Made by a program: the position numbers and the translations under genes. The notes under the pieces are model-generated. The model saw only the letters and a program-made list of their open reading frames with translations. It made no database searches and had not been told where the DNA came from. DNA of 32,000 nucleotides from Candidatus Saccharimonadota bacterium (lineage in GTDB: Bacteria > Patescibacteriota > Gracilibacteria > Absconditabacterales > Absconditicoccaceae), in NCBI GenBank assembly GCA_000503875.1, contig CP006913.1, positions 390,001 to 422,000 on the forward strand, given 5' to 3'. Each line of letters begins with the position of its first letter. The first letter of the stretch is position 1. Positions 3,022 through 32,000 of this stretch are shown here, one piece after another.

Positions 3022-5733
3022 ATGAACAACAAAACAAAATTTCTTAAATTTGGTATTGCAGTACTCTTGGGAGCAGGAGTTGTAGGTGGATTACTCTATG
3101 CCCAACTCAATATCCCTACAGATATTGATAATGCAGTAATGACTATTAAACAAATCAATATTACGTCGGATGGTCAAGCAACTACGCCCAAAATTGTTAT
3201 TGATGGTAGTGCATCAGATGGTAATTTTCTTAAAGTTGAATGAAGTATATTGATGGGAAGTATTACAGGATCTATTGGTCAAATAAATAAAGTATCAGGA
3301 GATAAATCAAGTATTCTTTGAGGAGTGAAAAATACGATAAATGGAGATTATTCGATAATTCCATGATGATCATATAATCAAGTGACAGGAACAGATTCTT
3401 ATGCTTTTGGAAATACAGTAAGAGTTAATGGTAGTCAATCATATGCAATTTGAAAATCTTTAATTTTGAATTGAAATGGTTCTTTTGTCTTTTCAGATGG
3501 AAAGCCATCAAATTTTACCGTTTCTAAAGATTGAGTTTTTATTGTAAAAGTTACTAACGGAGTAGGTATCAATACATGAGTAACAACTACAGGTTATGAC
3601 TTAACCGTTGCAGGTAGTGGTATCGTTTACGGTAACCTCAAAACAAACAATATGATAGCTGGAGCGTATTATTATGGATCAATAACTAGTGAAGATGATC
3701 AATACGAACTCAAATTAAGCCAATGGGAAGGAATAGGAAATATTTATTATAATTCATGATATGTAGGAATTGGAACCAATAATCCTACAGCACAACTCCA
3801 TGTAAATGGAACAACAATATTACAAGGGTTATCAACATCAACACAAACTACAGCTTTGGTTGTAGACGCCAATGGAAATGTAGGTACAAGAGCATTAAAC
3901 ACAGTAGCATTTAACGGATATACAGCGCCAGTAACATCAGTATCAGGAAGAACTGGAGCAGTAGTATTAACAAAAACAGATGTAGGATTGGCAAGCGTAG
4001 ACAATACAGCAGATATGGCTAAACCAGTTTCAACAGCGACACAAACAGCATTGAATCTCAAAGCAAATTTAGCAAATCCAGCCTTGACAGGGATACCAAC
4101 AGCACCAACAGCATCGACATGAACAAGTACAACTCAAATAGCAACAACAGAATTTGTAAAATTACAATGATATTTGACTACTGCTACAGCACCAGTAACA
4201 TCAGTAGCAGGAAAAGCTGGAGTAGTACTATTAACAAAGGCAGATGTAGGATTGGCAAATGTAGACAATACAGCAGATATGGCTAAACCAGTTTCAACAG
4301 CGACACAAACAGCATTGAATCTAAAAGCAAATCTAGCAAGTCCAGATTTGACAGGAATACCAACAGCACCAACAGCATCAATAGCAACAAACACAAATCA
4401 ACTAGCAACAACAAAATTTGTAAAAGATCAATGATATTTGACTATTGCTACAGAAGCAGATCCACAAGTGGGAACATTGACAAGTGGAAGATGGTGTACA
4501 ACAGATGGAACAACAGTAAATTGTGCAACAGTAGCACCAGTAACTACAGAAAGTGATCCACAAGTAGGAACACTAACTTCTGGTAAAATGTGTACAACAA
4601 ATGGAACAACGGTAAATTGTACGACAGATATTCCAGTAACTCCGACAAATTATGTAACAACAGATACAAATCAACCAGTAGCATGAATTAAAACATTTAG
4701 CAATAATACTATTTTCAACGGAAATGTAGGAATTTGAACAACAAGTCCTCAAAGTAAACTTCATATATTTGCACCATCACCAGTTCTTACATTAGAAGGA
4801 ACTGTTGATGATACCACAAAAATCAATTTTATTGATGATTGATCAGTTGTATGAGAACTTTCTGTTGATCGTAGTAGTGGTTTAACAAAACTTTGGACAA
4901 CAGAGCCTCTTTCTTTTTGATCAGCTAATGCGGAAAAAATGCGTATTTTACAAAATGGAAATGTAGGAATTTGAACAGCAAGTCCAGCAACAAAACTTCA
5001 TGTATATTGAGTAGATGGTTCATTCCCAGCTCGTATATCAAGTCCAGCTGGTTATATAGATATTGGACCATCAAATGCTTCGTGGGCACACATTTATACT
5101 GATAGACCAAATTTTATTTTTAATGCATGAGTCTACATTATAGGAGGAAAATTAAGTACATATGATACAGCTAGTCTACAATTACAAACAAATGGAACAA
5201 CAAGAATCTTCGCTGATAATACCAATGGTAATGTAGGAATTTGAACAACAACACCAGCAGCAAAACTTCATGTGGCATGATCAATTTGAGCTACTTCTTG
5301 GATTGGTGCGTGATGTGAGTGAGCTTGTGAATCATGAGGAGGATATTCTCTTTTGTACGCAGATGGAACAATTGTAGCAACAAGTTCAGTAACAGCAGCA
5401 GCATTCTACTATTCATCAGACATCACTCTCAAAAAAGATCTTACAAAAATTACAAATCCATTGGAAAAAATCATAGCATTAAATGGATATAATTTTACAT
5501 GGAAATCAAATGATAAAAAAGATATTTGAGTGGTTGCACAAGAAGTAGAAAAAGTATTTCCAGAAGCTGTTAAAGCAGATGCCAAAGGATTAAAATCAGT
5601 TGAATATGGAAACTTAGTTGCTCCAATTATCGAAGCAATCAAAGAATTATATACCAAATACCTAGATCAACAAACACAAATTTCCGAGCTAGAACAAAGA
5701 ATTGAAATATTAGAAAAGAATATAATTAAATAA
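3022..5733 (+). CDS. tail-fibre-like surface fibre protein (903 aa) with an N-terminal membrane anchor or signal and a C-terminal intramolecular-chaperone (peptidase S74-like) domain
   Basis: Single frame from ATG 3022 (alternative TTG 3004) to TAA 5731-5733, with dozens of in-frame TGA and no TAA/TAG; checked codon by codon. N-terminus MNNKTKFLKFGIAVLLGAGVVGGLLYA. Repeated NVGIGT(T/A)SP..KLH(V/I) motifs. Two 88-aa repeats contain GxxGAVVLTKxDVGLxxVDNTADMAKPVSTATQTALNLKA...TGIPTAPTA...TNQ(I/L)ATTxFV, a classic phage tail-fibre repeat. Confidence 0.85.
3922..4449. repeat. 2 x 264-bp tandem repeat encoding the tail-fibre repeat module
   Basis: 3922-4185 versus 4186-4449 are near-identical over long stretches (gatgtaggattggcaa..gtagacaatacagcagatatggctaaaccagtttcaacagcgacacaaacagcattgaatct). 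Confidence 0.85.
5413..5730 (+). other. peptidase S74-like intramolecular chaperone / autocleavage domain of the fibre protein
   Basis: SSDITLKKDLTKITNPLEKIIALNGYNFTWKSNDKKDIGVVAQEVEKVFPEAVKADAKGLKSVEYGNLVAPIIEAIKEL followed by a coiled-coil tail. This matches the S-D-x-x-x-K ... G(F/V)xAQEVxxVxPExV ... YxxLxxxxIxAIKEL pattern of endosialidase/tail-fibre chaperone domains. The predicted cleavage Ser-Asp is at 5416-5421. Confidence 0.8.
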
Positions 5734-5814: not shown

Positions 5815-8800
5815 ATGGGAAAGCTCAAAAAAACATGAATTATACTTGCTATATTTTGTATATCACAGATAATTTTTTCCGGTTTTGCTTTTGTATCTCC
5901 GATGTTAGTTATCAATAATACAGGGAATAATGCAAAAATACTTCCTATGAGAAAATGATGTCAACAGATAATCAATAATTGTGCTTATCCGATAGGAATA
6001 CTTATGTATCCTTCTTCAGCAACAAAATCATTTTTTGAAAACAAACCATCATGTGTAGTGTTGAGTGAGTGTGTAAAGACTATAAAATGTCCTGGTACAC
6101 TTCCTACAAATACAGAATGGAATACAAGTAGTAATTATGTACAAACATTTGATGGATTTAAATGGGTACCAACAAAAACTGCACATTATGATGCTACACC
6201 AGCATCAGATGATTGTAGATATGATTGTAAAACCAATTATTCATGGAACGGAACTAGTTGTATAGCGGATACAAGAACATATACATGTGCTGCAAAACCA
6301 ATAGGAACAGTGCGAAATACAGTAGGTAATTATTTACAAACATGGAATGGTACAACTCGAACACCATTAGATAGTACAACAAGTTATAGTACAACAGTAA
6401 GTACAAATTCTTGTAAATATAAATGTGATGTTTGATATAGATGGGATACTACAACTTCAAGTTGTATAAATACCTGTGCATTGCCATGGTGATGATGAAC
6501 AAAAACACATTGAGAAACAATAACAGCATATGATAAAACAAGTGGAACATGTACAACAAATAATTGTGCATCCGAAACACGTACATGTAATGGAGCGCTC
6601 TGAACATTTGATTGAACATATCAATATGCAAGTTGTACTCAAAACGCAAACACCCAAAGCTGTGTAATAGCAAACGGAGTAGGAACTCAATCATGTACAG
6701 CATGATCAACAAGTCGATGAACTTGTAATGTAGTAAGTTGTAACGCAGGATACCGTGCATCATGAAATACATGTGTAAATACATGCGCATTACCATGGTG
6801 AGGAACAATTACAAATGGACAATCAGTAACAGCATATGATAAAACGAGTGGAACATGTACAACAAATAATTGTGCATCAGAAACACGTACATGCAATGGA
6901 ACACTTTGAACATTAAATGGAACATATCAATATGCAAGTTGTACTCCAAACGCAAACACCCAAAGCTGTATAATAGCAAACGGAGTAGGAACTCAATCAT
7001 GTACAGCATGATCAACAAGTCGATGAACTTGTACTTTAGTAAGTTGTAACGCAGGATATCGTCCATTATGAAATACATGTATAAATACCTGTACATTACC
7101 ATGGTGATGAACAATTACAGATGGGCAACCAGTAACAGCATACGATAAAACAAGCGGAACATGTCCAACAAATAATTGTGCATCACAAATTCGTGTTTGT
7201 AACGGAACACTTTGAACATTAAATGGAACATATACGTATCAAAATTGTACAGCAAATGCAAATACGCAAAGCTGTACTGTTTCTAATGGTTGAGGAAATC
7301 AATCATGTGCAATATGATCAACAAGTCGATGATCATGTATAGTAAACCGATGTACTACAGATTATTATGATGATGGTTGAGCTAATGATTGTGTACATGT
7401 AGGAAATTGATATTATTCTAATAGTACATCAACAACAAGAACAGCATGTACAAATTATCCAGATACAGCAAGTCGTAATTATACATATACAAGTGCAGGA
7501 AATGGAACGAATAGTTGTACAGCAACATATACAGAATTATGTTGATTGGATTTATACGAGAATCCAATTGGAGTGTGTAGTGCAGTAGGAAACTGATATT
7601 TTTCACCAATAAACAATAATAGTAGAACATTATGTACAAATTATCCAGATACAGCAAGTCGTGATTATACATATACGAGTGATGGAAATGGAGCAAATAG
7701 TTGTACAGCAACATATACAGAACTATGTTGATTAGATTTATATGAAACATCAAATTGAGTGTGTAGTGCAGTAGGAAACTGATATTTTTCACCAATAAAT
7801 AATAATAGTAGAACATTATGTACAAACTATCCAGATACAGCAAGCCGTGATTATACATATACGAGTGATGGAAATGGAGCAAATAGTTGTACAGCAACAT
7901 ATACAGAACTATGTTGAGTAGATTTATATGAAACATCAAATTGAGTGTGTAGTGCAGTAGGAAACTGATATTTTTCACCAGCGAATAATAATAACAGAAC
8001 ATCATGTACAAATAAACCATCATACTCAACATATACAACTGATGGAAATGGAACAAATACTTGTTCACGAACTTGTGATACATGATATCACACAGAAGAT
8101 GGTGTTACTTGTATTTCAAATACGAAAACAACAAGTTGTACTGGGAAACCATTAGGAACGACATATTATACTGCAACAGATATAACACAAACATGGAATA
8201 CTAGCTTAAGTGCATGGCTTCCAAGTGCTGTAGCAACATACAGTACAACAGCAAGTACAACAGAATGTAGATACACCTGTGCAGCTTGATATCTTCGAAA
8301 TGGATCTTCATGTGTAGCGTGATGTAAAACTAATAGTGATTGTAGTTTATGAAAAATATGCCAATGATATGTAGCCCCTACTCGAAAATGTTTAGGAACT
8401 CAATTAAATAATTGATCTTGTAGTCAAGAGCCACTCCCATGATTTTGTGATAGTGAAGATTCTCCTTGTAGTACATATGATACATATTATGATTGTCAGG
8501 ATACGGATCGTTGTCATCTAGGAAAGCCTGGTATATGTAACCGAAATTGAACCTCTTGTATATGAATTACTAGTCAAACTACATGTAGTGCGACAGCATG
8601 ATGTTCAGTAAGTAATACATCATCAGAAGTATTTTGAACCTGTGTAACACCTACTCCTGTCTGTGGAAATGATATTGTAGAGATAGGGGAAACATGTGAT
8701 TGAGGAAGTCAATCATGTAGTATTGGAGGTGTAGCAGGAACTCAATTATGTAATAATACATGTAGTTGATATGGTACTTGTTTAGTAAGTCCATGTATAG

Positions 8801-9933
8801 CAAGTTATAATACAGATGTATGTTGATGATGTAAATGAAGTTGGACTATGTCAAGTTGTGATAATCGTGAATGTACTCCTGATGGTCTTGAAGATGCAAT
8901 ATGGAATTGTTCTTATGCTTGAATAACAAAACAATGTTATTCAGTATTAGGAGATCCATGTAATACATCAACATGTTTTACCTCTGGTACTCAAGTAAAA
9001 ACAGCAGATGGAATAAGTAAAAATATTGAAAATATTCAAATAGGAGACGAATTATTAGGTCAAGACGATCAAATAAATACTGTTATTGCATATGACCGTC
9101 CAAATCTTGGAGAAAGAAAACTTTATAGCATAAATAATGGACCATATTTTGTGACTCATGAACATCCATTTATGACTATATGATGATGGAAATCTATAAG
9201 TCCAGAAGCAACTCGAAGAGAAATGCCTAACTTTGAAATATTACCACTCAAAGTGGGAGATATTCTTATAAAAGAAAATAATGAAATTGAGTACATATGG
9301 AGTATCCAATCAACGACAGCAGATCCAGAAATACCATTATACAACTTTAAATTAGACGGAAATAATACTTATTATGCAAACGGATATTTAGTACACAATA
9401 AATTATATGATTGAGATGGTTGTACATTAAGTTCTCAATGTGCATGTGGATCTTGTGTTGGTTGAGTATGTTGTCCTACAGGAGGAGGCTGATGTTTCAA
9501 AGAATGAACACAAGTACGTTTACCAGATGGAACAACAACAGCTATAGAAAATATTCAAACAGGAAATATTGTATTATGATCAGAAAATACTCAAAACACA
9601 GTTCTCAAATTATTTAAAATCTGGAATAATAATTGGGATCTTTATGCAATAAATAATTCTGATTATTTTGTTACTGATACACATCCATTTATGACAACAG
9701 AAGGATGGAAATCATTGAATCCAGTATGATCTAGCAAAGAAAATCCAGGTATGATATTCTGACAACTTGAAATTGGTGATATACTTATAACAGAACAAGG
9801 AACAACTATTATATACTCATTAGAAAAAACAGCATATGCATGATATGTATATAATTTTAGATTAGATGGAAATAAAACATATTACGCAGATTGATATCTA
9901 GTACATAATGTAGAGATAAAATCTGTTGAATAA
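5815..9933 (+). CDS. giant secreted cysteine-rich repeat protein (1372 aa) ending in two tandem Hint (bacterial intein-like) domains
   Basis: One frame from ATG 5815 to TAA 9931-9933 with TGA = Gly; I walked the whole frame and found no TAA/TAG. N-terminal hydrophobic segment GIILAIFCISQIIFSGFAFV. Three ~102-aa repeats (CxLPWGG.I..G..V.AYDKTSGTC.TNNCAS..R.CNG.LG...). Four 62-aa repeats (VGNGYFSP.NNN.RT.CTNYPDTASR.YTYTS.GNG.NSCTATYTELCG.DLYE). One CGNDIVEIGETCD motif resembles the myxococcal Cys-rich repeat. Two Hint domains follow. Confidence 0.85.
6475..7395. repeat. 3 x ~306-309-bp coding tandem repeat (Cys-rich CxLPWGG module)
   Basis: Unit starts at 6475, 6784 and 7090 (tgtgcattgccatggtga / tgcgcattaccatggtga / tgtacattaccatggtga), with long near-identical stretches. 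Confidence 0.85.
7399..8142. repeat. 4 x 186-bp coding tandem repeat (VGNGYF...CTNYPDTASR module)
   Basis: Unit starts gtaggaaa(t/c)tgatat at 7399, 7585, 7771 and 7957. Copies 2 and 3 are almost identical. Confidence 0.85.
8974..9399 (+). other. Hint domain 1 (bacterial intein-like, 142 aa)
   Basis: Starts CFTSGTQVKTADG (block A Cys1), contains VTHEHPFMT (block B TxxH) and ends YYANGYLVHN (block G HN). The next residue is Lys, not Cys/Ser/Thr. Confidence 0.8.
9493..9909 (+). other. Hint domain 2 (139 aa), 31 aa downstream of Hint 1 in the same protein
   Basis: CFKEGTQVRLPDG ... VTDTHPFMT ... YYADGYLVHN, followed by only VEIKSVE and the stop. Confidence 0.8.
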
Positions 9934-9961
9934 TAATTGTATTTAATTTAATTATTTTTTC

Positions 9962-11167
9962 ATGAAACAGAAAATGACTTTCAAAAATCTAGAAAAAAAT
10001 ATATTTGTTGTTGGGATATTGTTTTTTTGAATAATAGGTGTCATTTTTGCTATAAATACTCAGAATGAATGATGGAGAATTACTAAAAGTGGTAGCTCAG
10101 CAACAGTTAATGTCCATAATGAATGTCGCGTTGTTACAAATAACCGTACAGATAATGATATTTTTGTACCAACAAGTTCAAGCGCAGAATGGCTATCTTT
10201 TAGAAATAATTTACCAACTAATGTTATTTTAGCTGAATGTGCAACTTGTTGATCTGCAAATTGATGAAGTTTTTCTCATCTTTTACCAACTGCTTCAACA
10301 CTTTGTCCCTCAGGAGTGACAGCAACTAATTTTCAATATCACGAGGGAATGATGGCAAAAGCCACTATATTTGGTGCAGTATATGCTGATTATATTGATG
10401 GTTATCGAGATTGGAATTGTGGTATATCTTATTGTTTTGCAAGTCATACGGTTGCCGGAGATCCTCCGACAAGTTATACATGTTCAGAGTCAGATTCAGC
10501 TTGTAGTTTATATTTTTCTGATACATGTTATAATACAAATACCATATGAGCAACCATCTGTGGTGTCGGAAATCATAAGGCAACATGTACCAGTGCATGA
10601 TGGGATGATGGGGGATGGTGTAGTGCGACATGTTTTGTAGAAAACACTCCTGTATTAATAATGGATGGATCTCATAAAAATATACAAGATGTTATTATTG
10701 GTGATATATTATTAGGTAAAGATAACACACCAAATAAGGTTATTGATTATTATCGTCCTATATTATGAGCAAGAAAATTGTACAGTATAAATAATGGTTT
10801 ATATTTTGTAACTCCAGAGCATCCATTTATGACGCTATGATGATGGAAATCTATAAATCCAGAAGCAACTCAAAGAGAAATGCCTAATTTCGAAATACTA
10901 CCCCTTAAAGTAGGTGATATATTGGTTAAAGAAAATGGAGAATCAGAATATATACGAACAATGTCATCAATATCAGTAGATCCAGAAACTCAATTATATA
11001 ATTTTAAATTAGATGGAAATAATACTTATTATGCAAATGGATACTTAGTACATAATAAATCACAGTGTCTCACTAATTCCGATTGTTCATCTGTTGGAGT
11101 TGGTTCTTGTTGTAATAACGGAACTTGTACAATACTTGTCAATTGAGTACGACCGACATGTAATTAA
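9962..11167 (+). CDS. secreted cysteine-rich protein (401 aa) with a Hint domain and a 36-aa Cys-rich C-terminal tail
   Basis: ATG 9962 to TAA 11165-11167, one frame with TGA = Gly. N-terminal TM/signal NIFVVGILFFGIIGVIFAI. Motif DIFVPTSSSAEWLSFRNNLP. Hint domain. Tail KSQCLTNSDCSSVGVGSCCNNGTCTILVNGVRPTCN. Confidence 0.85.
10631..11056 (+). other. Hint domain 3 (142 aa)
   Basis: CFVENTPVLIMDG ... VTPEHPFMT ... YYANGYLVHN. About 80% identical to Hint 1 at DNA level by eye (for example EMPNFEILPLKVGDIL is shared). Confidence 0.8.
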
Positions 11168-11575
11168 ATAAGTATCAATAAGAAAAGTGATTTTATATTT
11201 TATAAAACCATGAAGAAAAGTATACTGATTATAATTATATTGGTAGTTTTTTCATGAGTTGGTTTATTATTAGCAGCAAACCAATGATATTTTTGATATT
11301 GAGTGTCAAATACATTATCGGTAGCAAAATTAAATCAATCAGCAGGTTCAGCTGGAGCCGTATCTACATCAGTTTCCAAAGTAGAAGAGCATGGTATATG
11401 TAAAACAATAACTTCTACCAACACTAAACTTCTTTTTGTTCCTACAAAAACTGCAACAGAACGATCAACTTTTATAACAAAAAAACCAAATCATATAATA
11501 CTTGGTTCATGTGGATGTACAACGAATTCTGATTGTAGTGTTTGAAGTATATGTTCATGATATGTTGCTGGGGCA
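11166..11575. repeat. copy A of a ~410-bp duplicated module (upstream region plus first ~120 codons)
   Basis: aaataagtatcaataagaaaag... through ...tgttcatgatatgttgctgg matches 12150-12560 with scattered substitutions. Confidence 0.8.
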
Positions 11576-12052
11576 TGATATTGTGATGGAGAATTTGTAT
11601 ACAATAGTCCTGCATATTGTCAGAACGATTGTCGTGATGGACCTACTTGTGATCCTTGTACTGGAGTGACAAATCAGTGGGATTGCGAATCACAAACTCA
11701 GTGAGATCCTTGATATGAGTTTCAAGCTTGTTCTCGAATACCTGAGCAACCATGATGAACAGCTTATTGTGGTCAAGAATTTAGAACCCAAAGTGAATGT
11801 AATACTGCTCCTTCTGAATGTACTTGGGTAAATTGAACAGCAACACCATGAACGTGTGTTGCTCCAGTTGCTGTTTGTTGAAATGGTATAATTGAAGGTA
11901 CAGAACAGTGTGATGAACCAGCAAATATGTGAGATATGACTTCTTGTTCACGGACAGAAAATCTTCAACAGAAATGTAGCTCATGTCATTGTCAAACAAC
12001 CTGTCAGTCATATATAGATCCTAATGCTTGAAGAGTAGTTTGTTCAATGTAG
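11210..12052 (+). CDS. secreted cysteine-rich protein (280 aa), a Hint-less member of the family
   Basis: ATG 11210 to TAG 12050-12052 with 16 in-frame TGA (hand count). Signal/TM SILIIIILVVFSGVGLLLAA. Conserved ICKTITSTNTKLLFVPTKTATERSTF, CGCTTNSDCSVGSICSGYVAG and CGNGIIEGTEQCD motifs. Confidence 0.8.
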
Positions 12053-12106
12053 TCTATATTAGAATAGTAAATAATGATATTTGAAAAGATATATTTTATA
12101 AAGAAA

Positions 12107-12134
12107 GGCCTCTATGAAAATAGAGGTTTTTTTC
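12107..12134 (+). terminator. rho-independent terminator
   Basis: cctcta (12109-12114) pairs with tagagg (12121-12126), followed by a run of 7 T. Confidence 0.7.
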
Positions 12135-12149
12135 TTGATTGTAAAATTG

Positions 12150-12560
12150 AAATAAGTATCAATAAAAAAGGTAATTTTATATGTAATTAAATTATGAAAA
12201 AAAACTTATTAGCCATAATACTATTGATAATTTTTTCATGAGTCGGTTTATTGCTAGCAGCAAATCAATGATATTTTTGATATTGAGTATCAAGTACATT
12301 ATCGATAGCAAAATTAAATCAATCAGCAGGTTCAGCCGCAGCAATATCTACTACAATCCCAAAAATAGAAGAGCATGGTATATGTAAAACAATAACTTCT
12401 ACTGACACTAAACTTCTTTTTGTTCCTACAAAAACGGCAACAGAACGATCAACTTTTATCACAAACAAGCCAAGTCATATAACGCTTGGTACCTGTGGAT
12501 GTACAACAAATGCTGATTGTACTGTAGGACAAATTTGTTCATGATATGTTGCTGGAGCAA
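12150..12560. repeat. copy B of the ~410-bp duplicated module
   Basis: See copy A. The junction motif tttttttcttgattg(t/c)aaaa also recurs after both terminators (12127-12148 and 13821-13842). Confidence 0.8.
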
Positions 12561-13777
12561 ATTCTTGTCAAGGATCTTATGAATCAACATCTTTTTGGTG
12601 TGTATGAAAATCAATTCCTGATAGTTCTCCTCCATACGTTTGTATGAAGTCAGGTGAACCTTATCAATTAGTTCCAGCAGATTGATGTCCATCAGGTCGA
12701 AGTTTATGATTTATTCAATGATGATCTATTCTGTCTGTATCAGAAACTCTATGTCAGATTATAGACCAAACTGATTTTCAATTACCTAATTGTGAGTATA
12801 AATGTAATACATATACAACATCATCTACTTGTAATGCTAATTCATCATATTGTGATTGGGTATCAAGAAATAACTCATTATCTTGTTCTTCATTTAACCA
12901 AACAACATGTCAATCAACAAATGGTTGTGATTGGGTACCTTGAACACCAGTAACATTAGGAACTTGTACAACTCAAATATGTGGTAATGATATTAAAGAA
13001 TGAACAGAATTGTGTGATGGTTATGATCTTCAAATACCGTGTACTACGACTTTATGAAAAGTTTGAACAAAATACTGTAATAGTACCTGTAATTGATATA
13101 CTACTTGTGTAGCAGATCCAACACCACCATCATGATCAACTTGTGTCCCTAAAAATTGTTTTATAGCTGATACAAAAATTAAACTAGCTGACGGTAGCAC
13201 AAAGCCAATTCAAGAAATAACAACAAAAGATATCGTATATAGTGTATCATGAAAAAAGAATAAAGTAATATGAACATCAAAAAGATTGGATACGACACCA
13301 CTTTATGCATTTAACAATAGTAATCATTATTTTGTAACAGAGGCACATCCGTTTCTTACATTAGATGGATGGAAATCACTAAATCCAGACGCAACAAATC
13401 AAGAAAATCCATGATTGATGGTAACTAAATTATCTATATGAGATATATTAATCACAGAAAAATGAACTACCACATTATTTGCTATCGATTCTATCCCAAA
13501 CAAACAAGGAACATATGTATACAATATTACTGTAGAAAACACCCATGATTATTATGCTGATTGATATGCTGTTCATAATAAATTACAATGTTTAGATATT
13601 GGCTTATATCCATGTGATGGTTGAATGTATTGTGCTGATAATGCATCTCAATGTGAACAATGTCCTGTTGGACTATGTGATCCATGTACTAGTACTTCTC
13701 AATGTCCTGTAGATAGTTATTGTCATTCTATAAATAAAATGTGTCGACCGAGTAGCTGACCAGTTTGTGCATTATAA
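12194..13777 (+). CDS. secreted cysteine-rich protein (527 aa) with a Hint domain and a 65-aa Cys-rich C-terminal tail
   Basis: ATG 12194 to TAA 13775-13777, one frame with TGA = Gly. The first ~120 aa are near-identical to the 11210 gene. Contains a CGNDIKEGTELCD motif, a Hint domain and the tail KLQCLDIGLYPCDGGMYCADNASQCEQCPVGLCDPCTSTSQCPVDSYCHSINKMCRPSSGPVCAL. Confidence 0.85.
13157..13579 (+). other. Hint domain 4 (141 aa)
   Basis: CFIADTKIKLADG ... VTEAHPFLT ... YYADGYAVHN, followed by Lys. Confidence 0.8.
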
Positions 13778-13797: not shown

Positions 13798-13828
13798 AAA
13801 AAAACCTAGCAATTATTAGGTTTTTTTC
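13798..13828 (+). terminator. rho-independent terminator
   Basis: aaaaccta (13801-13808) pairs with taggtttt (13817-13824), running into a T-run. Confidence 0.65.
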
Positions 13829-13888
13829 TTGATTGCAAAACAGGAATAACTATCCTAAATACAATTTTTATTTTTTCGTTAAAAGTAT

Positions 13889-14947
13889 ATGTTCAAAAAA
13901 TTAATTCTGATTTTAAATATATGAATATTGTTTTTTTCTTTTGGTTTTGCTTACAAAGAACTCATTATCCAAAATATCGATAAAAAACCAGTGAGAGTTA
14001 TTAAAGTAATTTTGGATGGGCAACATTATGTAGTAAGTTCTGTAGCAGAGGATGGGGGAGCAACGCTTCAAGAACTTACCAAAAAAGTTGGTGGGGATAC
14101 TGCCGTCAATGGAACGTTCTTTTGTCCCGATGATTATAGTTCTTGTGGAGGGACGACTCATACAAATTCAGAAAGAATTTATCTATGAGATGGGGCGTCT
14201 TGGAGCAGACATCGACCTGATACAAGTATCAGAATGGTGTTCTGATTTGATAAAGATTGAAATTCTGCATTTGTTCAAAATAATATGGGAAAATTGATCG
14301 ATGCCTGATTATGGATCAAACCAGATCAAAAGAAATTAGAATCATTACAATTTTGAATAGGATGATTTCCTGCTTTTCTTCTTGAAGGTGAGGATGTCGT
14401 AGAGTGATATAATGCATATCTTGATACCAAAATGAATACTGCAGGCAATAAAACATTTATTTGTTCAACAGAAGATTGATCTACAATTTATATGTGAGTT
14501 GTATGATGAATAAACATTCCCCAGATGCCGGCATATCTCAAAAAAAACTTTGATTGTCGAAATGCACTCAATCTTGATGCAGGAAATAGTATAGGTATGA
14601 TATATTCCGGGTTTGTTCTTGATCAGAGTAATAGAACGAGAATTATGGATGCTTTTGTTGTATTAACGAGAGAACAATATATCAATCTTACAAGAATAAC
14701 TCCATCAAATAAAACACCTTATGATGCAGAAGAACAATATCAACTTACCGAAAAAGATCAGCAAAAGGTCAAAACTATTTACAATGCATTACAGCCGTTT
14801 ATTATACAAAATGGAACAAAACAAAAACGAAGCTTTATTTCATTGCTTCGTTCAGCAGTTACTGCTCCAAAAATCGTTGCAGATCCACAAAAATTAGCAA
14901 TTATCAAAGATTTGCTCTGGAGATTCTTTGTCATTTGAGAGTTATAA
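13889..14947 (+). CDS. probable phosphodiester glycosidase family (DUF2233/NAGPA-like) exported protein, 352 aa
   Basis: ATG 13889 to TAA 14945-14947, one frame with about 13 TGA (walked by hand). N-terminal hydrophobic segment. Motifs AVNGTFF and ALNLDAGNS resemble the NGGFF ... NLDGGGS signature of that family. The assignment is from memory. Confidence 0.5.
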
Positions 14948-29337: not shown

Positions 29338-32000
29338 TTATTCTGACACAATAGCAGGAACAAATGGTATAGAATCTGCTGAAATAGAATCTGCTGGAAC
29401 AGTTACAATATTATTAGGATCATCAAATCAACCAGTTTCTTCCGTAACTTCTTCAACTTCACCAGAATCAGAAACAGCATATAAAATCAAACCTCAAGTA
29501 GCAACAAGACCAGCAACAATCATTCCTGTTCTTAATTTTCATTTATTTTCTTGGATAAAATTTTTGAAGCTTTCTTTTGTTGTAAATTGTTTACTAGAAT
29601 TAATAATTTGATTTTTTAAGGAAATTTTTGTATCTCATAATTTTTCCTTTGAAATCTTAAAGTTTTTTCTATTTGCTCAATATTTTCCAATTGTTCAGCT
29701 AGGACTCGTATAGTTTATATCGACAATAATTTCGGTTTTTGTAATATCATTAACTTTATATGTAAATTGTTCTGCGCCATTTCAAGTTTTGATAGTAAAT
29801 TCTTGTCATTTTTTCGCTTTATATAATTTGTTTAAACACTGTTTTGTATGAATTTCTGTAGTATTCCATCATAATCAAATATCTTCTCATTTTACAATAT
29901 TGAGTTTAGCTCCTTTAGGAGTTAAAATTTTTGAATTTCTTCCAGGACCAATCATATCTATTGATCTAAAATCTTGTGGTTTAGCTTTTGGAATATCAAC
30001 AAATTTACCATCTGAAGATAATTTTACTTCTATAGCTTTGATATTTCCAGCACCTGCTTCGAGTACTTTATATACTTTACCACCATCCTTTATAATAGTT
30101 CAAGATTCAAGTTGATTCAATGCTGTTAAGTCTTTACTAGAATAATTTTCAGATATATTTTTACCAGGTTGTTTTTTAACTGTAGCCTTAACTTCTTTAG
30201 GAGTTAAGATTTTTGGTGTTCTTCCAGGACCAATCATATCTATTGATCTAAAATCTTGCGGTTTAGCGCCAGGAATTTCAATAAATTTCCCATCTGAAGA
30301 TATTTTCATTTCTATAGCTTTTATATTTCCAGGACTTGTTTCAATTACTTTAAGTATTTTACCATCATTTTTTATAATGGTTCATGATTCAAGTTGGTTC
30401 ATTGCCGTTAAATCTTTACTAGAATATTTTTCAGATATATTTGTTTCCTTTCAACTCTTATCTTTTCCAGAATTTTCTCCTTTTTCTTTTCAATTTTCTT
30501 TAATTTTGTTTTTTCCTCCATCAACGAGTTCAATAGTTTTACCTCTTTTTTTGAAAGTTACTTTTTTAGGTAATTTACCGGCACCTTCTGCCATTCTAGA
30601 TAATAGACATGCTTGAATAAATTCTTCCCATGTAGGATTCCATGCTTCTCAATTGAAACCACTAAATACAAATTCAAGTCATTGACTCGTTCCAGTTAAC
30701 ATTCAACCTTGTACCAAGATTTTTCCAAAATTTTGTAAGATATCTTTACCTACAAGTGCTTTTGGTGCTCATATCCTTAATCCATTGGTATTAATAACAG
30801 TATTTGCATTTCATTCTGATAAATTAATTTTTTGACCAAGCTTTGTATTTGCAAGTTTAGAAAAAGCTGTTCAAAGTCATTTAAGAACTCAAACAAATGC
30901 AGCAGATTTTGCCATTTCTTTTCGATCTCATACATTCTCAAAAAGAGATCTATCTGGAAGTATAACGTTTGTTGCAATATTAGATCCTTGATAAAAAGCT
31001 ACTCATTCTATACCTGTTTTTAATCACCATTTAGTTAATTTTGCAGTTTTATATGCTGCTTTGGCAAGTTTTCAACCCTTAGATAAATTATTTACTCAAG
31101 AAACTATTCAAGTTCCTCGTTTAGTAGCTTTTATGGCTGTAGATCCATATTTCACAGCAGCTAGAGCAACTCTAGCAGCAATAGCTCAAGCTCCCATAGT
31201 AACAGCAGCTAATGCTATTGTTTGTCATGCTTCTATAGCATAATCTAAATTATTATCTGAAATATCCCATGTACCTACACCCAATATATCTTTCATCATA
31301 GCAAGATCTTTATCTTTTGATAAATCTTGATTTGCATCAAACATAGTCTGGATTTTACCTTCTATCATAAGTTCTTGTAACAAAAGTAGTGTAGATGTAT
31401 TTGTAGATTCTTTTATCATAAAATCAGTAGCTTTTGTTAGATAATCATCCCAATTATAAGCTTTACCTCTAGGGATTATCTTTTCTCAATTATTATTTGC
31501 TTTTTCTTCACTTTCATTTTGTTCATTCCATGATTTTAAAAGAAGCGCTTTGTCTTCTTCATTTGTGGCTTGACTTTCGATACTAGCTTTAAATTGTTTT
31601 TGATTAGAATCTTTATTATTTTTATCTTTGATTTTAATATATTCTTCAATTATTTCTTTTGAAATTGCTTTTGAATCTTTTTCATTAATTCATAAATCTA
31701 TTAAAATTTTAGATATTTTATCTTTTTCTCCTTTGGTAATTATATCAATTGTTTCTGGGTTTTGAAAAATTTTATTTATTTCATCAAAATCACTTCTTTC
31801 GAGAATTCTTTCCATAAGTTTTGATTTAACCGCATCTGAATTTCCTCCTCAATCTCATCCAACAGAATCCAACATTGCATCTCCAAATTTTCTTCTATTT
31901 ATATCCAACATATCTAATTCTAATTCTTTATATTTTGTTGAATCAAAATTGGTAAATAATTTTTTTGTTTTTTCTAAATCATCTTGTCAAAGGACAGTTT
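29338..32000 (-). CDS. large hypothetical protein, 3' portion (at least 887 aa; the 5' end lies beyond the window). It has a C-proximal TM helix, two 94-aa tandem repeats and a Gly/Ala-rich amphipathic core.
   Basis: Walked by hand on the minus strand in the frame of ORFs 31225..31419 and 30100..30309. There is no TAA/TAG from 31998 down to TAA 29338-29340, and dozens of TGA. TM segment GMIVAGLVATGGLILYAV lies about 45 aa before the acidic C-terminus. Confidence 0.75.
29875..30438. repeat. 2 x 282-bp tandem coding repeat
   Basis: Encodes ISE(N/K)YSSKDLTA(L/M)NQLESGTIIK..GK..KV.E...GNIKAIE.K.SSDGKF..IP.AKPQDFRSIDMIGPGR..KILTPK twice. DNA stretches such as ttccaggaccaatcatatctattgatctaaaatcttg are shared. 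Confidence 0.85.

Follow-up and report, generated by a model that had tools for sequence, protein, structure and literature searches.

What are Hint domains, which share their fold with inteins, doing at the C-terminal ends of cysteine-rich, secreted proteins of a bacterium with a recoded genome? The question is raised by a 32,000-nucleotide stretch of the genome of Candidatus Saccharimonadota bacterium (GTDB lineage Bacteria; Patescibacteriota; Gracilibacteria; Absconditabacterales; Absconditicoccaceae; assembly GCA_000503875.1, contig CP006913.1, positions 390,001 to 422,000), hereafter the window, in which four consecutive plus-strand genes, A to D (positions 5815-13777), each encode a secreted-type protein containing 5-8.5% cysteine. 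From the identity of the domains, their catalytic residues, purifying selection and a mosaic, variable locus, all of them observed directly, we consider it probable that A-D are secreted, disulfide-rich, adhesin-like surface proteins encoded in a variable island and that their C-terminal Hint domains, which resemble type A bacterial intein-like (BIL) domains, self-process after export. BIL domains have been known since 2003, and the locus is not a categorically new system; it holds a member of the BIL class whose setting and architecture are new. The first-pass annotation of the window, made from the letters alone, had described an apparatus that could not be matched to anything described; that statement no longer holds, because the type A BIL definition covers these domains and BIL2 is their closest solved relative.

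Four non-splicing Hint domains with an intact catalytic set

A six-frame search of the window with the family profile returned exactly four Hint domains (E = 1e-44 to 8e-62), two in A and one each in B and D, which is the number that the first-pass annotation had counted in three of the four proteins. Pfam Hint-family models matched A, B and D at the same places as the family profile and gave no match in gene C. All four are mini-Hints of about 142 residues in which Cys1-Phe2, T61xxH64 and the terminal H141-N142 are invariant and which end in VHN, so that the full catalytic set proposed for them is present, and it is 95-100% conserved in 238 homologues. Their positions are as follows.

8974-9399, plus strand: Hint 1 of A (residues 1054-1195), CF...TxxH...VHN, lysine at +1
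9493-9909, plus strand: Hint 2 of A (residues 1227-1365), valine at +1 and lysine at +4
10631-11056, plus strand: Hint of B (residues 224-365), lysine at +1
13157-13579, plus strand: Hint of D (residues 322-462), lysine at +1

Since the +1 residues are K, V, K and K, with no Cys, Ser or Thr among them, canonical splicing is impossible. A canonical intein was rejected on this ground and because no conserved host protein is interrupted; in different genomes, the Hint and its tail stand behind unrelated N-terminal regions, a BIL-like setting in variable, secreted, non-housekeeping proteins. Judged by sequence, the four domains appear to fit the published definition of type A BIL domains, which are mostly self-cleaving and for which aminolytic ligation of the flanks is possible (PMC4031507), and the earlier preference for non-splicing, BIL-type Hints over inteins is borne out.

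Other Hint-bearing systems were also considered and rejected. The PT-HINT model (PF07591) scored 25.4, 16.8 and 17.2 bits against a gathering cut-off of 27.7, and a polymorphic toxin was rejected because neither a toxin domain nor an adjacent immunity gene is present; the gaps of 28, 42, 141 and 111 nucleotides leave no room for an immunity gene, and the antisense open reading frames (ORFs) are low-complexity artefacts. The first-pass annotation had likewise set the locus apart from polymorphic-toxin layouts. A BUBL-type locus was rejected because Pfam and NCBIfam gave no ubiquitin-family match and the flanks are cysteine-rich, and a Hedgehog/Hog domain because the terminal HN is present and 1AT0 was matched only at E = 2e-4 by Foldseek. 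Among the Pfam models, Hom_end_hint scored 59.9 in A and 34.3 in B, both above its gathering cut-off of 32.1; NCBIfam gave weak intein N- and C-terminal matches only, and in PHROGs only Hint-containing phrogs of unknown function were matched. As a separate observation, the Pfam AXH model (ataxin-1/HBP1 module, PF08517) and ataxin-1 AXH chains in the PDB match the Hints over about 100 residues (E = 1e-8 to 1e-4), and an 'AXH' label is precomputed on many members of the Hint family; this reflects either an unrecognised relationship between Hint and AXH or a contaminated model.

All four genes were placed, by translation with table 25 (TGA as glycine), exactly where they had first been drawn. Under table 11 the region breaks into fragments; with TGA read as sense, long ORFs run across the whole window, and ORFs of at least 150 residues amount to 38 kb, as against the 9 kb that table 11 gives. 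The Hints contain 17 TGA codons, 12 of which coincide with columns whose most frequent residue across 238 homologous Hints is glycine, the near-invariant glycine columns among the TGA sites being G71 (213/235), G95 (223/238) and G103 (186/236), and none of the 17 falls on the conserved tryptophan of the domain, which supports table 25. The lineage to which the window belongs is Absconditabacteria. In public records, the European Nucleotide Archive (ENA) has the contig within a sediment metagenome (287,776 bp), and its copies P0001 and P0172 are translated with TGA as tryptophan (5% spurious W); in the orthologous locus of the nearest named relative, a Candidatus Absconditabacteria metagenome-assembled genome (MAG; L001 8735-11573, JAQUVI010000004), a run of N splits the gene in the NCBI record into a 374-residue gene and a 'partial' 523-residue gene; the family is thus hidden from routine searches.

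BIL2 is the closest solved relative

Against the sequences in the PDB, the profile matched first, and over its full length, BIL2 from the Tetrahymena thermophila BUBL1 locus (6Y75/6TMM, E = 3e-14), ahead of the Clostridium thermocellum BIL domain 2LWY (E = 7e-9) and of inteins. Structure was modelled with AlphaFold2 on the C-terminal half of the D orthologue P0002, whose Hint is 84% identical to that of D. The first-pass annotation had proposed structure prediction for both the Hint domains and the cysteine-rich modules; the former succeeded, with a predicted local distance difference test (pLDDT) above 90 across the Hint core of the orthologue, and the latter did not (pLDDT below 50). In Foldseek, the modelled Hint again matched BIL2 first (E = 7e-13, TM score 0.78-0.80, about 31% identity); gp41-1, DnaB and CthBIL (2LWY, E = 9e-8) trailed it by five orders of magnitude, with Hedgehog far behind, and the best 50 PDB matches listed were all inteins, BIL, Vint or Hedgehog domains. 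The model of the D orthologue thus predicts a Hint fold. According to a passage in section 2.4 of PMC8616854 (after Chiarini 2021 and Dassa 2004), BIL2 joins its N-terminal flank to the epsilon-amine of a lysine, forming an isopeptide bond, and does so with several substrates.

The window Hints share with type A BIL domains (Amitai 2003; Dassa 2004; CthBIL4; the Neisseria MafB BIL) a length of about 140 residues, Cys1, TxxH, a C-terminal His-Asn, the lack of a +1 nucleophile and a place in variable secreted proteins rather than conserved housekeeping ones, so that N- and C-terminal autocleavage would be expected of them and aminolytic ligation would be possible. Unlike type A BILs, the clade described here has a conserved +1 lysine, tandem arrays and cysteine-rich flanks on both sides, and it occurs in the candidate phyla radiation (CPR) and in predatory lineages without a toxin or immunity partner; 2LWY is only a distant match. 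With BIL2 and BUBL1 it shares the alternation of Hints with small domains in one polypeptide (Hint-spacer-Hint in A) and the implication of a lysine on the C-terminal side, but BIL2 is eukaryotic and cytoplasmic, has ubiquitin-like flanks and performs a zinc-activated, ubiquitin-like conjugation, whereas the proteins here are bacterial and secreted and have disulfide-rich flanks. As in PT-HINT proteins, the Hint of a secreted, multidomain protein lies close to the C-terminal end, and what follows it is presumed to be released, but A-D have no RHS, FHA, LXG or MafB-type trafficking region. Hedgehog and Hog proteins also have a C-terminal Hint on a secreted protein, the N-terminal part as the functional product and Cys1 thioester chemistry; Hog domains, however, lack the terminal His-Asn that the Hints here possess and have a sterol-recognition region. 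The Hints here agree with class 1 mini-inteins in fold and in the catalytic blocks A, B and G but have no +1 Cys, Ser or Thr and no homing endonuclease, and do not lie inside a conserved host protein.

A large clade with lysine after the terminal His-Asn

With D as query, a word-indexed search brought up no more than 18 proteins, which suggested the rarity that the first-pass annotation had implied. That appearance was overturned by an exhaustive hmmsearch with the Hint profile against 1.84 billion cluster representatives, which returned 12,838 at E ≤ 1e-3, 3,172 at E ≤ 1e-10 and 511 at E ≤ 1e-30; the combination of a Hint with a small cysteine-rich tail is found in many lineages. Residue statistics were taken from 238 complete Hints in the best 164 proteins of this search, of which 236 start with CF and 229 end in HN (C1 100%, T61 95%, H64 100%, H141 98%, N142 97%). 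At +1, lysine stands in 172, valine in 19 and arginine in 10, and Cys, Ser and Thr together in 8 of the 238. The 172 lysines among the 229 HN-ending Hints (75%) compare with a lysine background of 5.1% (binomial P ~ 1e-169). Lysine occurs at one of the positions +1 to +5 in 192 of these 229, in 23 of 27 terminal tails of at most 8 residues and, in tails of 9-25 residues that do not start with lysine, among the last three residues in 10 of 13.

Many family members have tails of only 1-8 residues. Cysteine-rich tails after HNK are nevertheless recurrent in many lineages (at least four cysteines in 32 of 52 tails of 20-120 residues), and the tiny disulfide-rich cargo seen in the window is therefore a family trait and not a peculiarity of this locus. 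Tandem arrays reach seven Hints, mostly with spacers of 1-6 residues (for example KGG-S, typically K-G-G-x-S); P0019, P0020, P0023, P0048 and others have arrays of four to seven catalytically intact Hints, some of them in proteins of 2000-4000 residues. If every Hint in such arrays cut on both its sides, Hint monomers and tiny peptides would result.

In a pattern-limited scan of GTDB species genomes, the subtype was found in Absconditabacteria, Nomurabacteria, Paceibacteria, Saccharibacteria, Bacteriovoracaceae, Omnitrophota, Bacteroidota and others, and two phage tape-measure-like proteins (P0016 and P0017) carry this Hint. Named family members are all annotated as 'hypothetical protein', and the library of papers that was searched held none linking Hint domains with CPR, Patescibacteria or Absconditabacteria. 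Sequence comparison delineates a large, undescribed BIL2-like clade of hundreds of 50%-identity clusters, present, among the recovered genomes of that pattern-limited scan, mainly in CPR/Patescibacteria and predatory bacteria.

Mosaic proteins in a variable island

Around the Hints, A-D are assembled from a shared head, cysteine modules and tails, listed here with the hairpins that follow C and D.

5815-9933, plus strand: gene A, a secreted mosaic of 1372 residues under table 25, with 99 cysteines and 61 TGA codons; in order, signal/anchor, head, EGF-like and other cysteine modules, pre-Hint cysteine module, Hint 1, spacer, Hint 2, tail
5896-6081, plus strand: A-type N-terminal head (residues 28-89), homologous to the head of B, C and D
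6490-7401, plus strand: three tandem 306-nucleotide repeats encoding the CxLPWGG cysteine module, the copies 90% and 69% identical to the first
7438-8019, plus strand: three tandem 186-nucleotide repeats encoding the GNGYFSP...C module, 91% and 86% identity
9400-9492, plus strand: spacer between the Hints of A, 31 residues, 6 cysteines (KLYDGDGCTLSSQCACGSCVGGVCCPTGGGG)
9910-9930, plus strand: tail of A after Hint 2, 7 residues, VEIKSVE
9962-11167, plus strand: gene B, 401 residues, 19 cysteines; head (10070-10252), cysteine-rich middle, Hint, 36-residue tail with 6 cysteines
11057-11164, plus strand: tail of B, KSQCLTNSDCSSVGVGSCCNNGTCTILVNGVRPTCN, 36 residues, spacing C-x5-C-x7-CC-x4-C-x10-C
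11210-12052, plus strand: gene C, 280 residues, 24 cysteines, a Hint-less paralogue of D; head (11357-11524), CTTNSDC module, CGNGIIEGTEQCD module
12102-12133, plus strand: terminator-like hairpin and T-run after C, called by a scan
12194-13777, plus strand: gene D, 527 residues, 37 cysteines; head (12341-12508), cysteine modules, CGNDIKEGTELCD module, Hint, 65-residue cysteine-rich tail
13580-13774, plus strand: tail of D, 65 residues, 58% identical to the L001 orthologue with all cysteines in register
About 13805-13827: a similar hairpin and T-run after D, seen by eye

The head common to A-D spans about 50 residues (C..[VI].NN......[FM][VY]P[TS]...[EK]...F...P.....L..C), and its A-type and B/C/D-type forms are homologous (hhalign probability 93%, E = 3e-7); its AlphaFold2 model, at a pLDDT of 46, is unusable. 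The cysteine-dense modules of the first-pass annotation are real repeats at the DNA level, and two of the middle modules of A are recent tandem repeats (3 x 306 and 3 x 186 nucleotides). The label of a myxococcal-like repeat did not survive: neither DUF4215 nor TIGR02232 matched A-D (E ≤ 0.1) or their relative P0015 (E ≤ 0.05), a protein with the CGNGxxExGExCD motif in tandem, and the likeness is one of motif only. The 5' ends of C and D, including the upstream region, are 86% identical in nucleotides. For the tails of 7, 36 and 65 residues, there was no match in Pfam or NCBIfam and none to a toxin family; the C-C-CC-C-C spacing of the B tail is one that we take to fit the knottin (inhibitor cystine knot) consensus, as a lead only.

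A word-indexed search with the non-Hint part of A found 88 relatives, among them Gracilibacteria InlB-repeat and prepilin-type proteins, 'calcium-binding EGF-like' proteins and deltaproteobacterial and Methylococcus surface proteins. Modules of A recur in EGF_CA, Lcl_C, InlB-repeat and N_methyl (prepilin) proteins, the N_methyl prepilin motif was confirmed in two of the relatives, and relatives of the CxLPWGG module are present in other bacterial surface proteins.

The site of the island is fixed, with the tail-fibre gene on one side and NAGPA-NusA on the other. The same flanks recur in L001 (Por_Secre_tail gene on the minus strand, Peptidase_S74 fibre gene, island, NAGPA, NusA, GltX, GyrB, RpoD), where the island, differing in content from that of the window, holds only two genes. 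One encodes a 197-residue protein with a B/C/D-type head; the other, split by an assembly gap, has an A-type head, Ig-like repeats and a D-type CGNDIKEG module followed by a Hint and a cysteine-rich tail. In P0037, from another recoded genome, an A head and a different middle precede the A-type ending of Hint, cysteine spacer, Hint and short tail, and P0028 joins a B head to the A-type tandem-Hint ending; in both of these orthologue-like proteins the ending consists of a Hint, a 27-residue spacer with 4 cysteines, a Hint and a 4-residue tail. Heads, middles and Hint cassettes are, by these comparisons, shuffled between genomes, and what the first-pass annotation had called an apparatus is a shuffled family of paralogous surface proteins in a variable island and not a multi-component machine.

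Selection was estimated at codon level for D and its L001 orthologue (Nei-Gojobori, TGA as glycine, dS about 0.6-0.8). The ratio of non-synonymous to synonymous substitution rates (dN/dS) was 0.12 for the Hint, 0.25 for the pre-Hint module and 0.46 for the tail, as compared with 0.05 for NusA, 0.06 for GyrB, 0.11 for GltX and 0.18 for NAGPA among the flanking genes. The value for the Hint indicates strong purifying selection, by which it is kept as a protein, and the tail of D behaves, as far as these substitutions indicate, like a fast-evolving disulfide scaffold.

Proposed processing after export and its rival explanations

In the scheme that we favour, the Hint would fold after export, and an N-to-S acyl shift at Cys1, helped by the TxxH block, would produce a thioester to the upstream ectodomain; cyclisation at the terminal His-Asn would cut the bond to the downstream residue, and the thioester would be resolved by hydrolysis, the dominant outcome in type A BILs, or by an amine. 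The ectodomain would then be separated from the Hint, cysteine-rich peptides of 31 (A), 36 (B) and 65 (D) residues would be freed, and the processing would need neither protease nor ATP. Self-cleavage, its extracellular timing and a role in attachment to host or prey are what we infer here, and a host-interaction role of A-D is plausible.

Several points weigh against this reading. For every member of the subtype, self-cleavage is something that we infer. The Hint of D falls below the gathering cut-off of every Pfam model (best AXH 26.4, Hom_end_hint 22), and for this reason its assignment is drawn from the family profile (201 bits) and the orthologue structure. The N-termini of A-D, each with a basic stretch and then about 17-20 hydrophobic residues, are putative signal/anchor segments judged by eye. 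The pre-Hint cysteine module and the 12-cysteine tail of the D orthologue, like the head, were modelled at a pLDDT below 50, so that 'adhesin-like' is a term taken only from the relatives of the modules and from context. Cys1 would have to stay reduced in an oxidising, disulfide-forming compartment, which does not obviously fit proteins with 5-8% cysteine. Finally, hydrolysis alone leaves unexplained both the near-universal lysine at or near +1 and the arrays of up to seven Hints with spacers of 1-6 residues.

Because of the conserved lysine, the tandem arrays and the position of BIL2 as closest relative, we kept under consideration a reading in which the thioester is captured by the epsilon-amine of a lysine, either the +1 lysine, which would yield an isopeptide between ectodomain and tail, or a lysine of another protein, including one on the surface of host or prey; we regard it as unlikely. 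BIL2 leads the solved relatives by both sequence and fold, with isopeptide chemistry given in the passage of PMC8616854 cited above, and lysine is enriched at +1, frequent within +1 to +5 and kept in short tails, three of the four window Hints having it at +1 and the fourth at +4. The identity to BIL2 is, however, only about 31%, the ubiquitin-like flanks of BIL2 are absent here, a +1 lysine could equally serve cyclisation of the asparagine or folding, and for tails that consist of one lysine and nothing else an intramolecular product looks pointless. There is a small chance that the CF...HN-K clade is an extracellular ligase module, independent of ATP and proteases, for covalent assembly or attachment through isopeptide bonds; by analogy, and just as improbably, it might be the bacterial counterpart of the BIL2 'dispensing platform', akin to thioester-domain adhesins, with tandem arrays as multi-shot versions.

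The product of interest might instead be the small disulfide-rich peptide, acting as a knottin- or defensin-like toxin or signal against the host bacterium and released by the Hint without a protease, with no immunity gene required because the producer would lack the target; both the peptide role and this account of the missing immunity gene seem to us quite unlikely. The recurrence of cysteine-rich tails (32/52), the fast divergence of the D tail with its cysteines in register, as in effector-like scaffolds, the C-C-CC-C-C spacing in B and the spacer of A, which lies between two complete Hints and would be excised if both cleave, speak for such a role. Yet many members, as well as Hint 2 of A, have tails of 1-8 residues, which shows that tail cargo is not required; tail-like cysteine modules also lie upstream of Hints and in the Hint-less C, and so look like ordinary structural modules, no tail matched a toxin family, and the tail of the D orthologue was modelled with low confidence (pLDDT < 50). 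An explanation at the level of DNA, in which Hints supply homology for recombination that swaps N- and C-terminal modules while protein activity is secondary or lost, has a precedent in Neisseria, where the BIL of MafB lies at the junction of constant and variable parts and a role as recombination cassettes was proposed for the BIL-encoding mafB cassettes (PMC4287609). It accords with a 62-nucleotide block shared by the 3' ends of the four Hints (65-87% identity), with the similarity of A Hint 1 and the B Hint (74% nucleotide identity over 300 nucleotides, 72% in amino acids) and with the clear chimeras between genomes. Conservation of the catalytic residues at 95-100% in 238 divergent Hints and the dN/dS of 0.12, however, argue that selection acts on the protein and not only on the DNA, and the variable part here chiefly precedes the Hint, a layout opposite to that of MafB; we consider this explanation very unlikely.

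Neighbouring genes and the context of relatives

Two secreted proteins are encoded at the borders of the island.

3022-5733, plus strand: the conserved left flank, a secreted, tail-fibre-like protein whose C-terminus is of the Peptidase_S74 (self-cleaving chaperone) type
13889-14947, plus strand: secreted phosphodiester glycosidase of the NAGPA family, the conserved right flank at the island end, followed by NusA

The match of the former to the Peptidase_S74/endosialidase chaperone (E = 2e-15) confirms the tail-fibre-like adhesin that had been noted beside the cluster. This fibre gene is syntenic in L001 and also lies beside a Hint protein in L002-L005. In P0009, from another recoded lineage, a signal segment, a short peptide and a Hint are followed in the same protein by a 620-residue fibre ending in Peptidase_S74, and the gene adjoins both a Por_Secre_tail gene and an S74 fibre gene. 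In Paceibacterota (GCA_964386065.1), P0128 has a Hint and an 8-cysteine tail, and its gene immediately precedes pilB, pilC and pilin genes; at this locus (L061 7001-12618), P0128 and three upstream paralogous secreted proteins precede pilB (T2SSE), pilC (T2SSF) and the pilin genes, with NusA adjacent, which suggests a link of the Hint clade to type IV pilus loci in CPR. P0012 belongs to a set of three tandem paralogues that carry thrombospondin type 1 (TSP1) repeats and, by eye, prepilin-like N-termini. At L060 2292-9568, two of three tandem TSP_1-repeat paralogues end in this Hint subtype, and their N-termini look prepilin-like by eye (KGFSMLQAL), with no match to the N_methyl hidden Markov model at E = 0.05; TSP1-like motifs also occur in the Absconditabacteria-like P0007. 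The theme that these annotated contexts point to is one of surface filaments and adhesins. In the paper on Vampirococcus, an elaborate fibrous surface and type IV pili are the presumed host-attachment apparatus of Absconditabacteria, and neither Hint nor cysteine-rich proteins are mentioned (PMC8080830).

Beside the island, a gene with a Por_Secre_tail domain, the sorting domain of the type IX secretion system (T9SS), lies at 1066-2832 on the minus strand and has no TGA in 589 codons and a foreign cysteine and glycine codon usage (TGC 7/13, GGC 4), whereas all other genes here use TGA for glycine. Its counterpart in L001 (1133-3262, minus strand) also has no TGA in 710 codons; the L002 copy has 36. 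Relatives comprise one Patescibacteria orthologue at 80% identity and 445 others that, where named, are T9SS substrates of Bacteroidota (30-45% identity). The gene looks, from its codons and relatives, as if it were derived from Bacteroidota and kept readable in the standard code, possibly as a transfer from a host or as host mimicry; no T9SS is known from CPR.

A repeated AT-rich block (CTTGATTG.AAA...AATAAGTATCAATAA.AA.G.GATTTTATAT) at 11168-11209, 12134-12193 and 13828-13880 precedes C and D and also follows D, the copies at 12134-12193 and 13828-13880 each coming right behind a terminator-like hairpin. The block may be a promoter or regulatory element that the genes have in common and that was copied together with them. 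Scans of the window found no tRNA, and sigma-70 matches were not above shuffles (45 versus 55.7 +/- 8). Antisense ORFs at 6384-7361, 7418-8104, 11200-11763 and 11330-12058 were rejected as low-complexity artefacts. An ORF at 7418-8083 on the minus strand (221 residues, ATG start, open even in table 11), antisense to the GNGYFSP repeats, was rejected as a repeat artefact rather than a gene because its translation is of low complexity (repeats rich in L, Y, H and M). A large protein of more than 880 residues, encoded at 29338-31998 on the minus strand and running off the window end, has a C-terminal transmembrane segment and internal repeats of about 90 residues (ENYSSKDLTA.NQLESGTIIK...) and may be another surface protein. 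The remaining window is ordinary chromosome (NusA, GltX, GyrB, RpoD, RuvA, LepA).

Implications for host contact

The signature of the clade, a lysine after His-Asn together with tandem arrays and cysteine-knot tails, is sharp and testable. CPR and predatory bacteria live entirely by cell-surface contact with a host. Should the Hints cleave, host-attachment proteins would mature without a protease in organisms whose proteomes are minimal; should they ligate to lysines, they would represent a new extracellular chemistry of covalent attachment and a useful tool for protein engineering.

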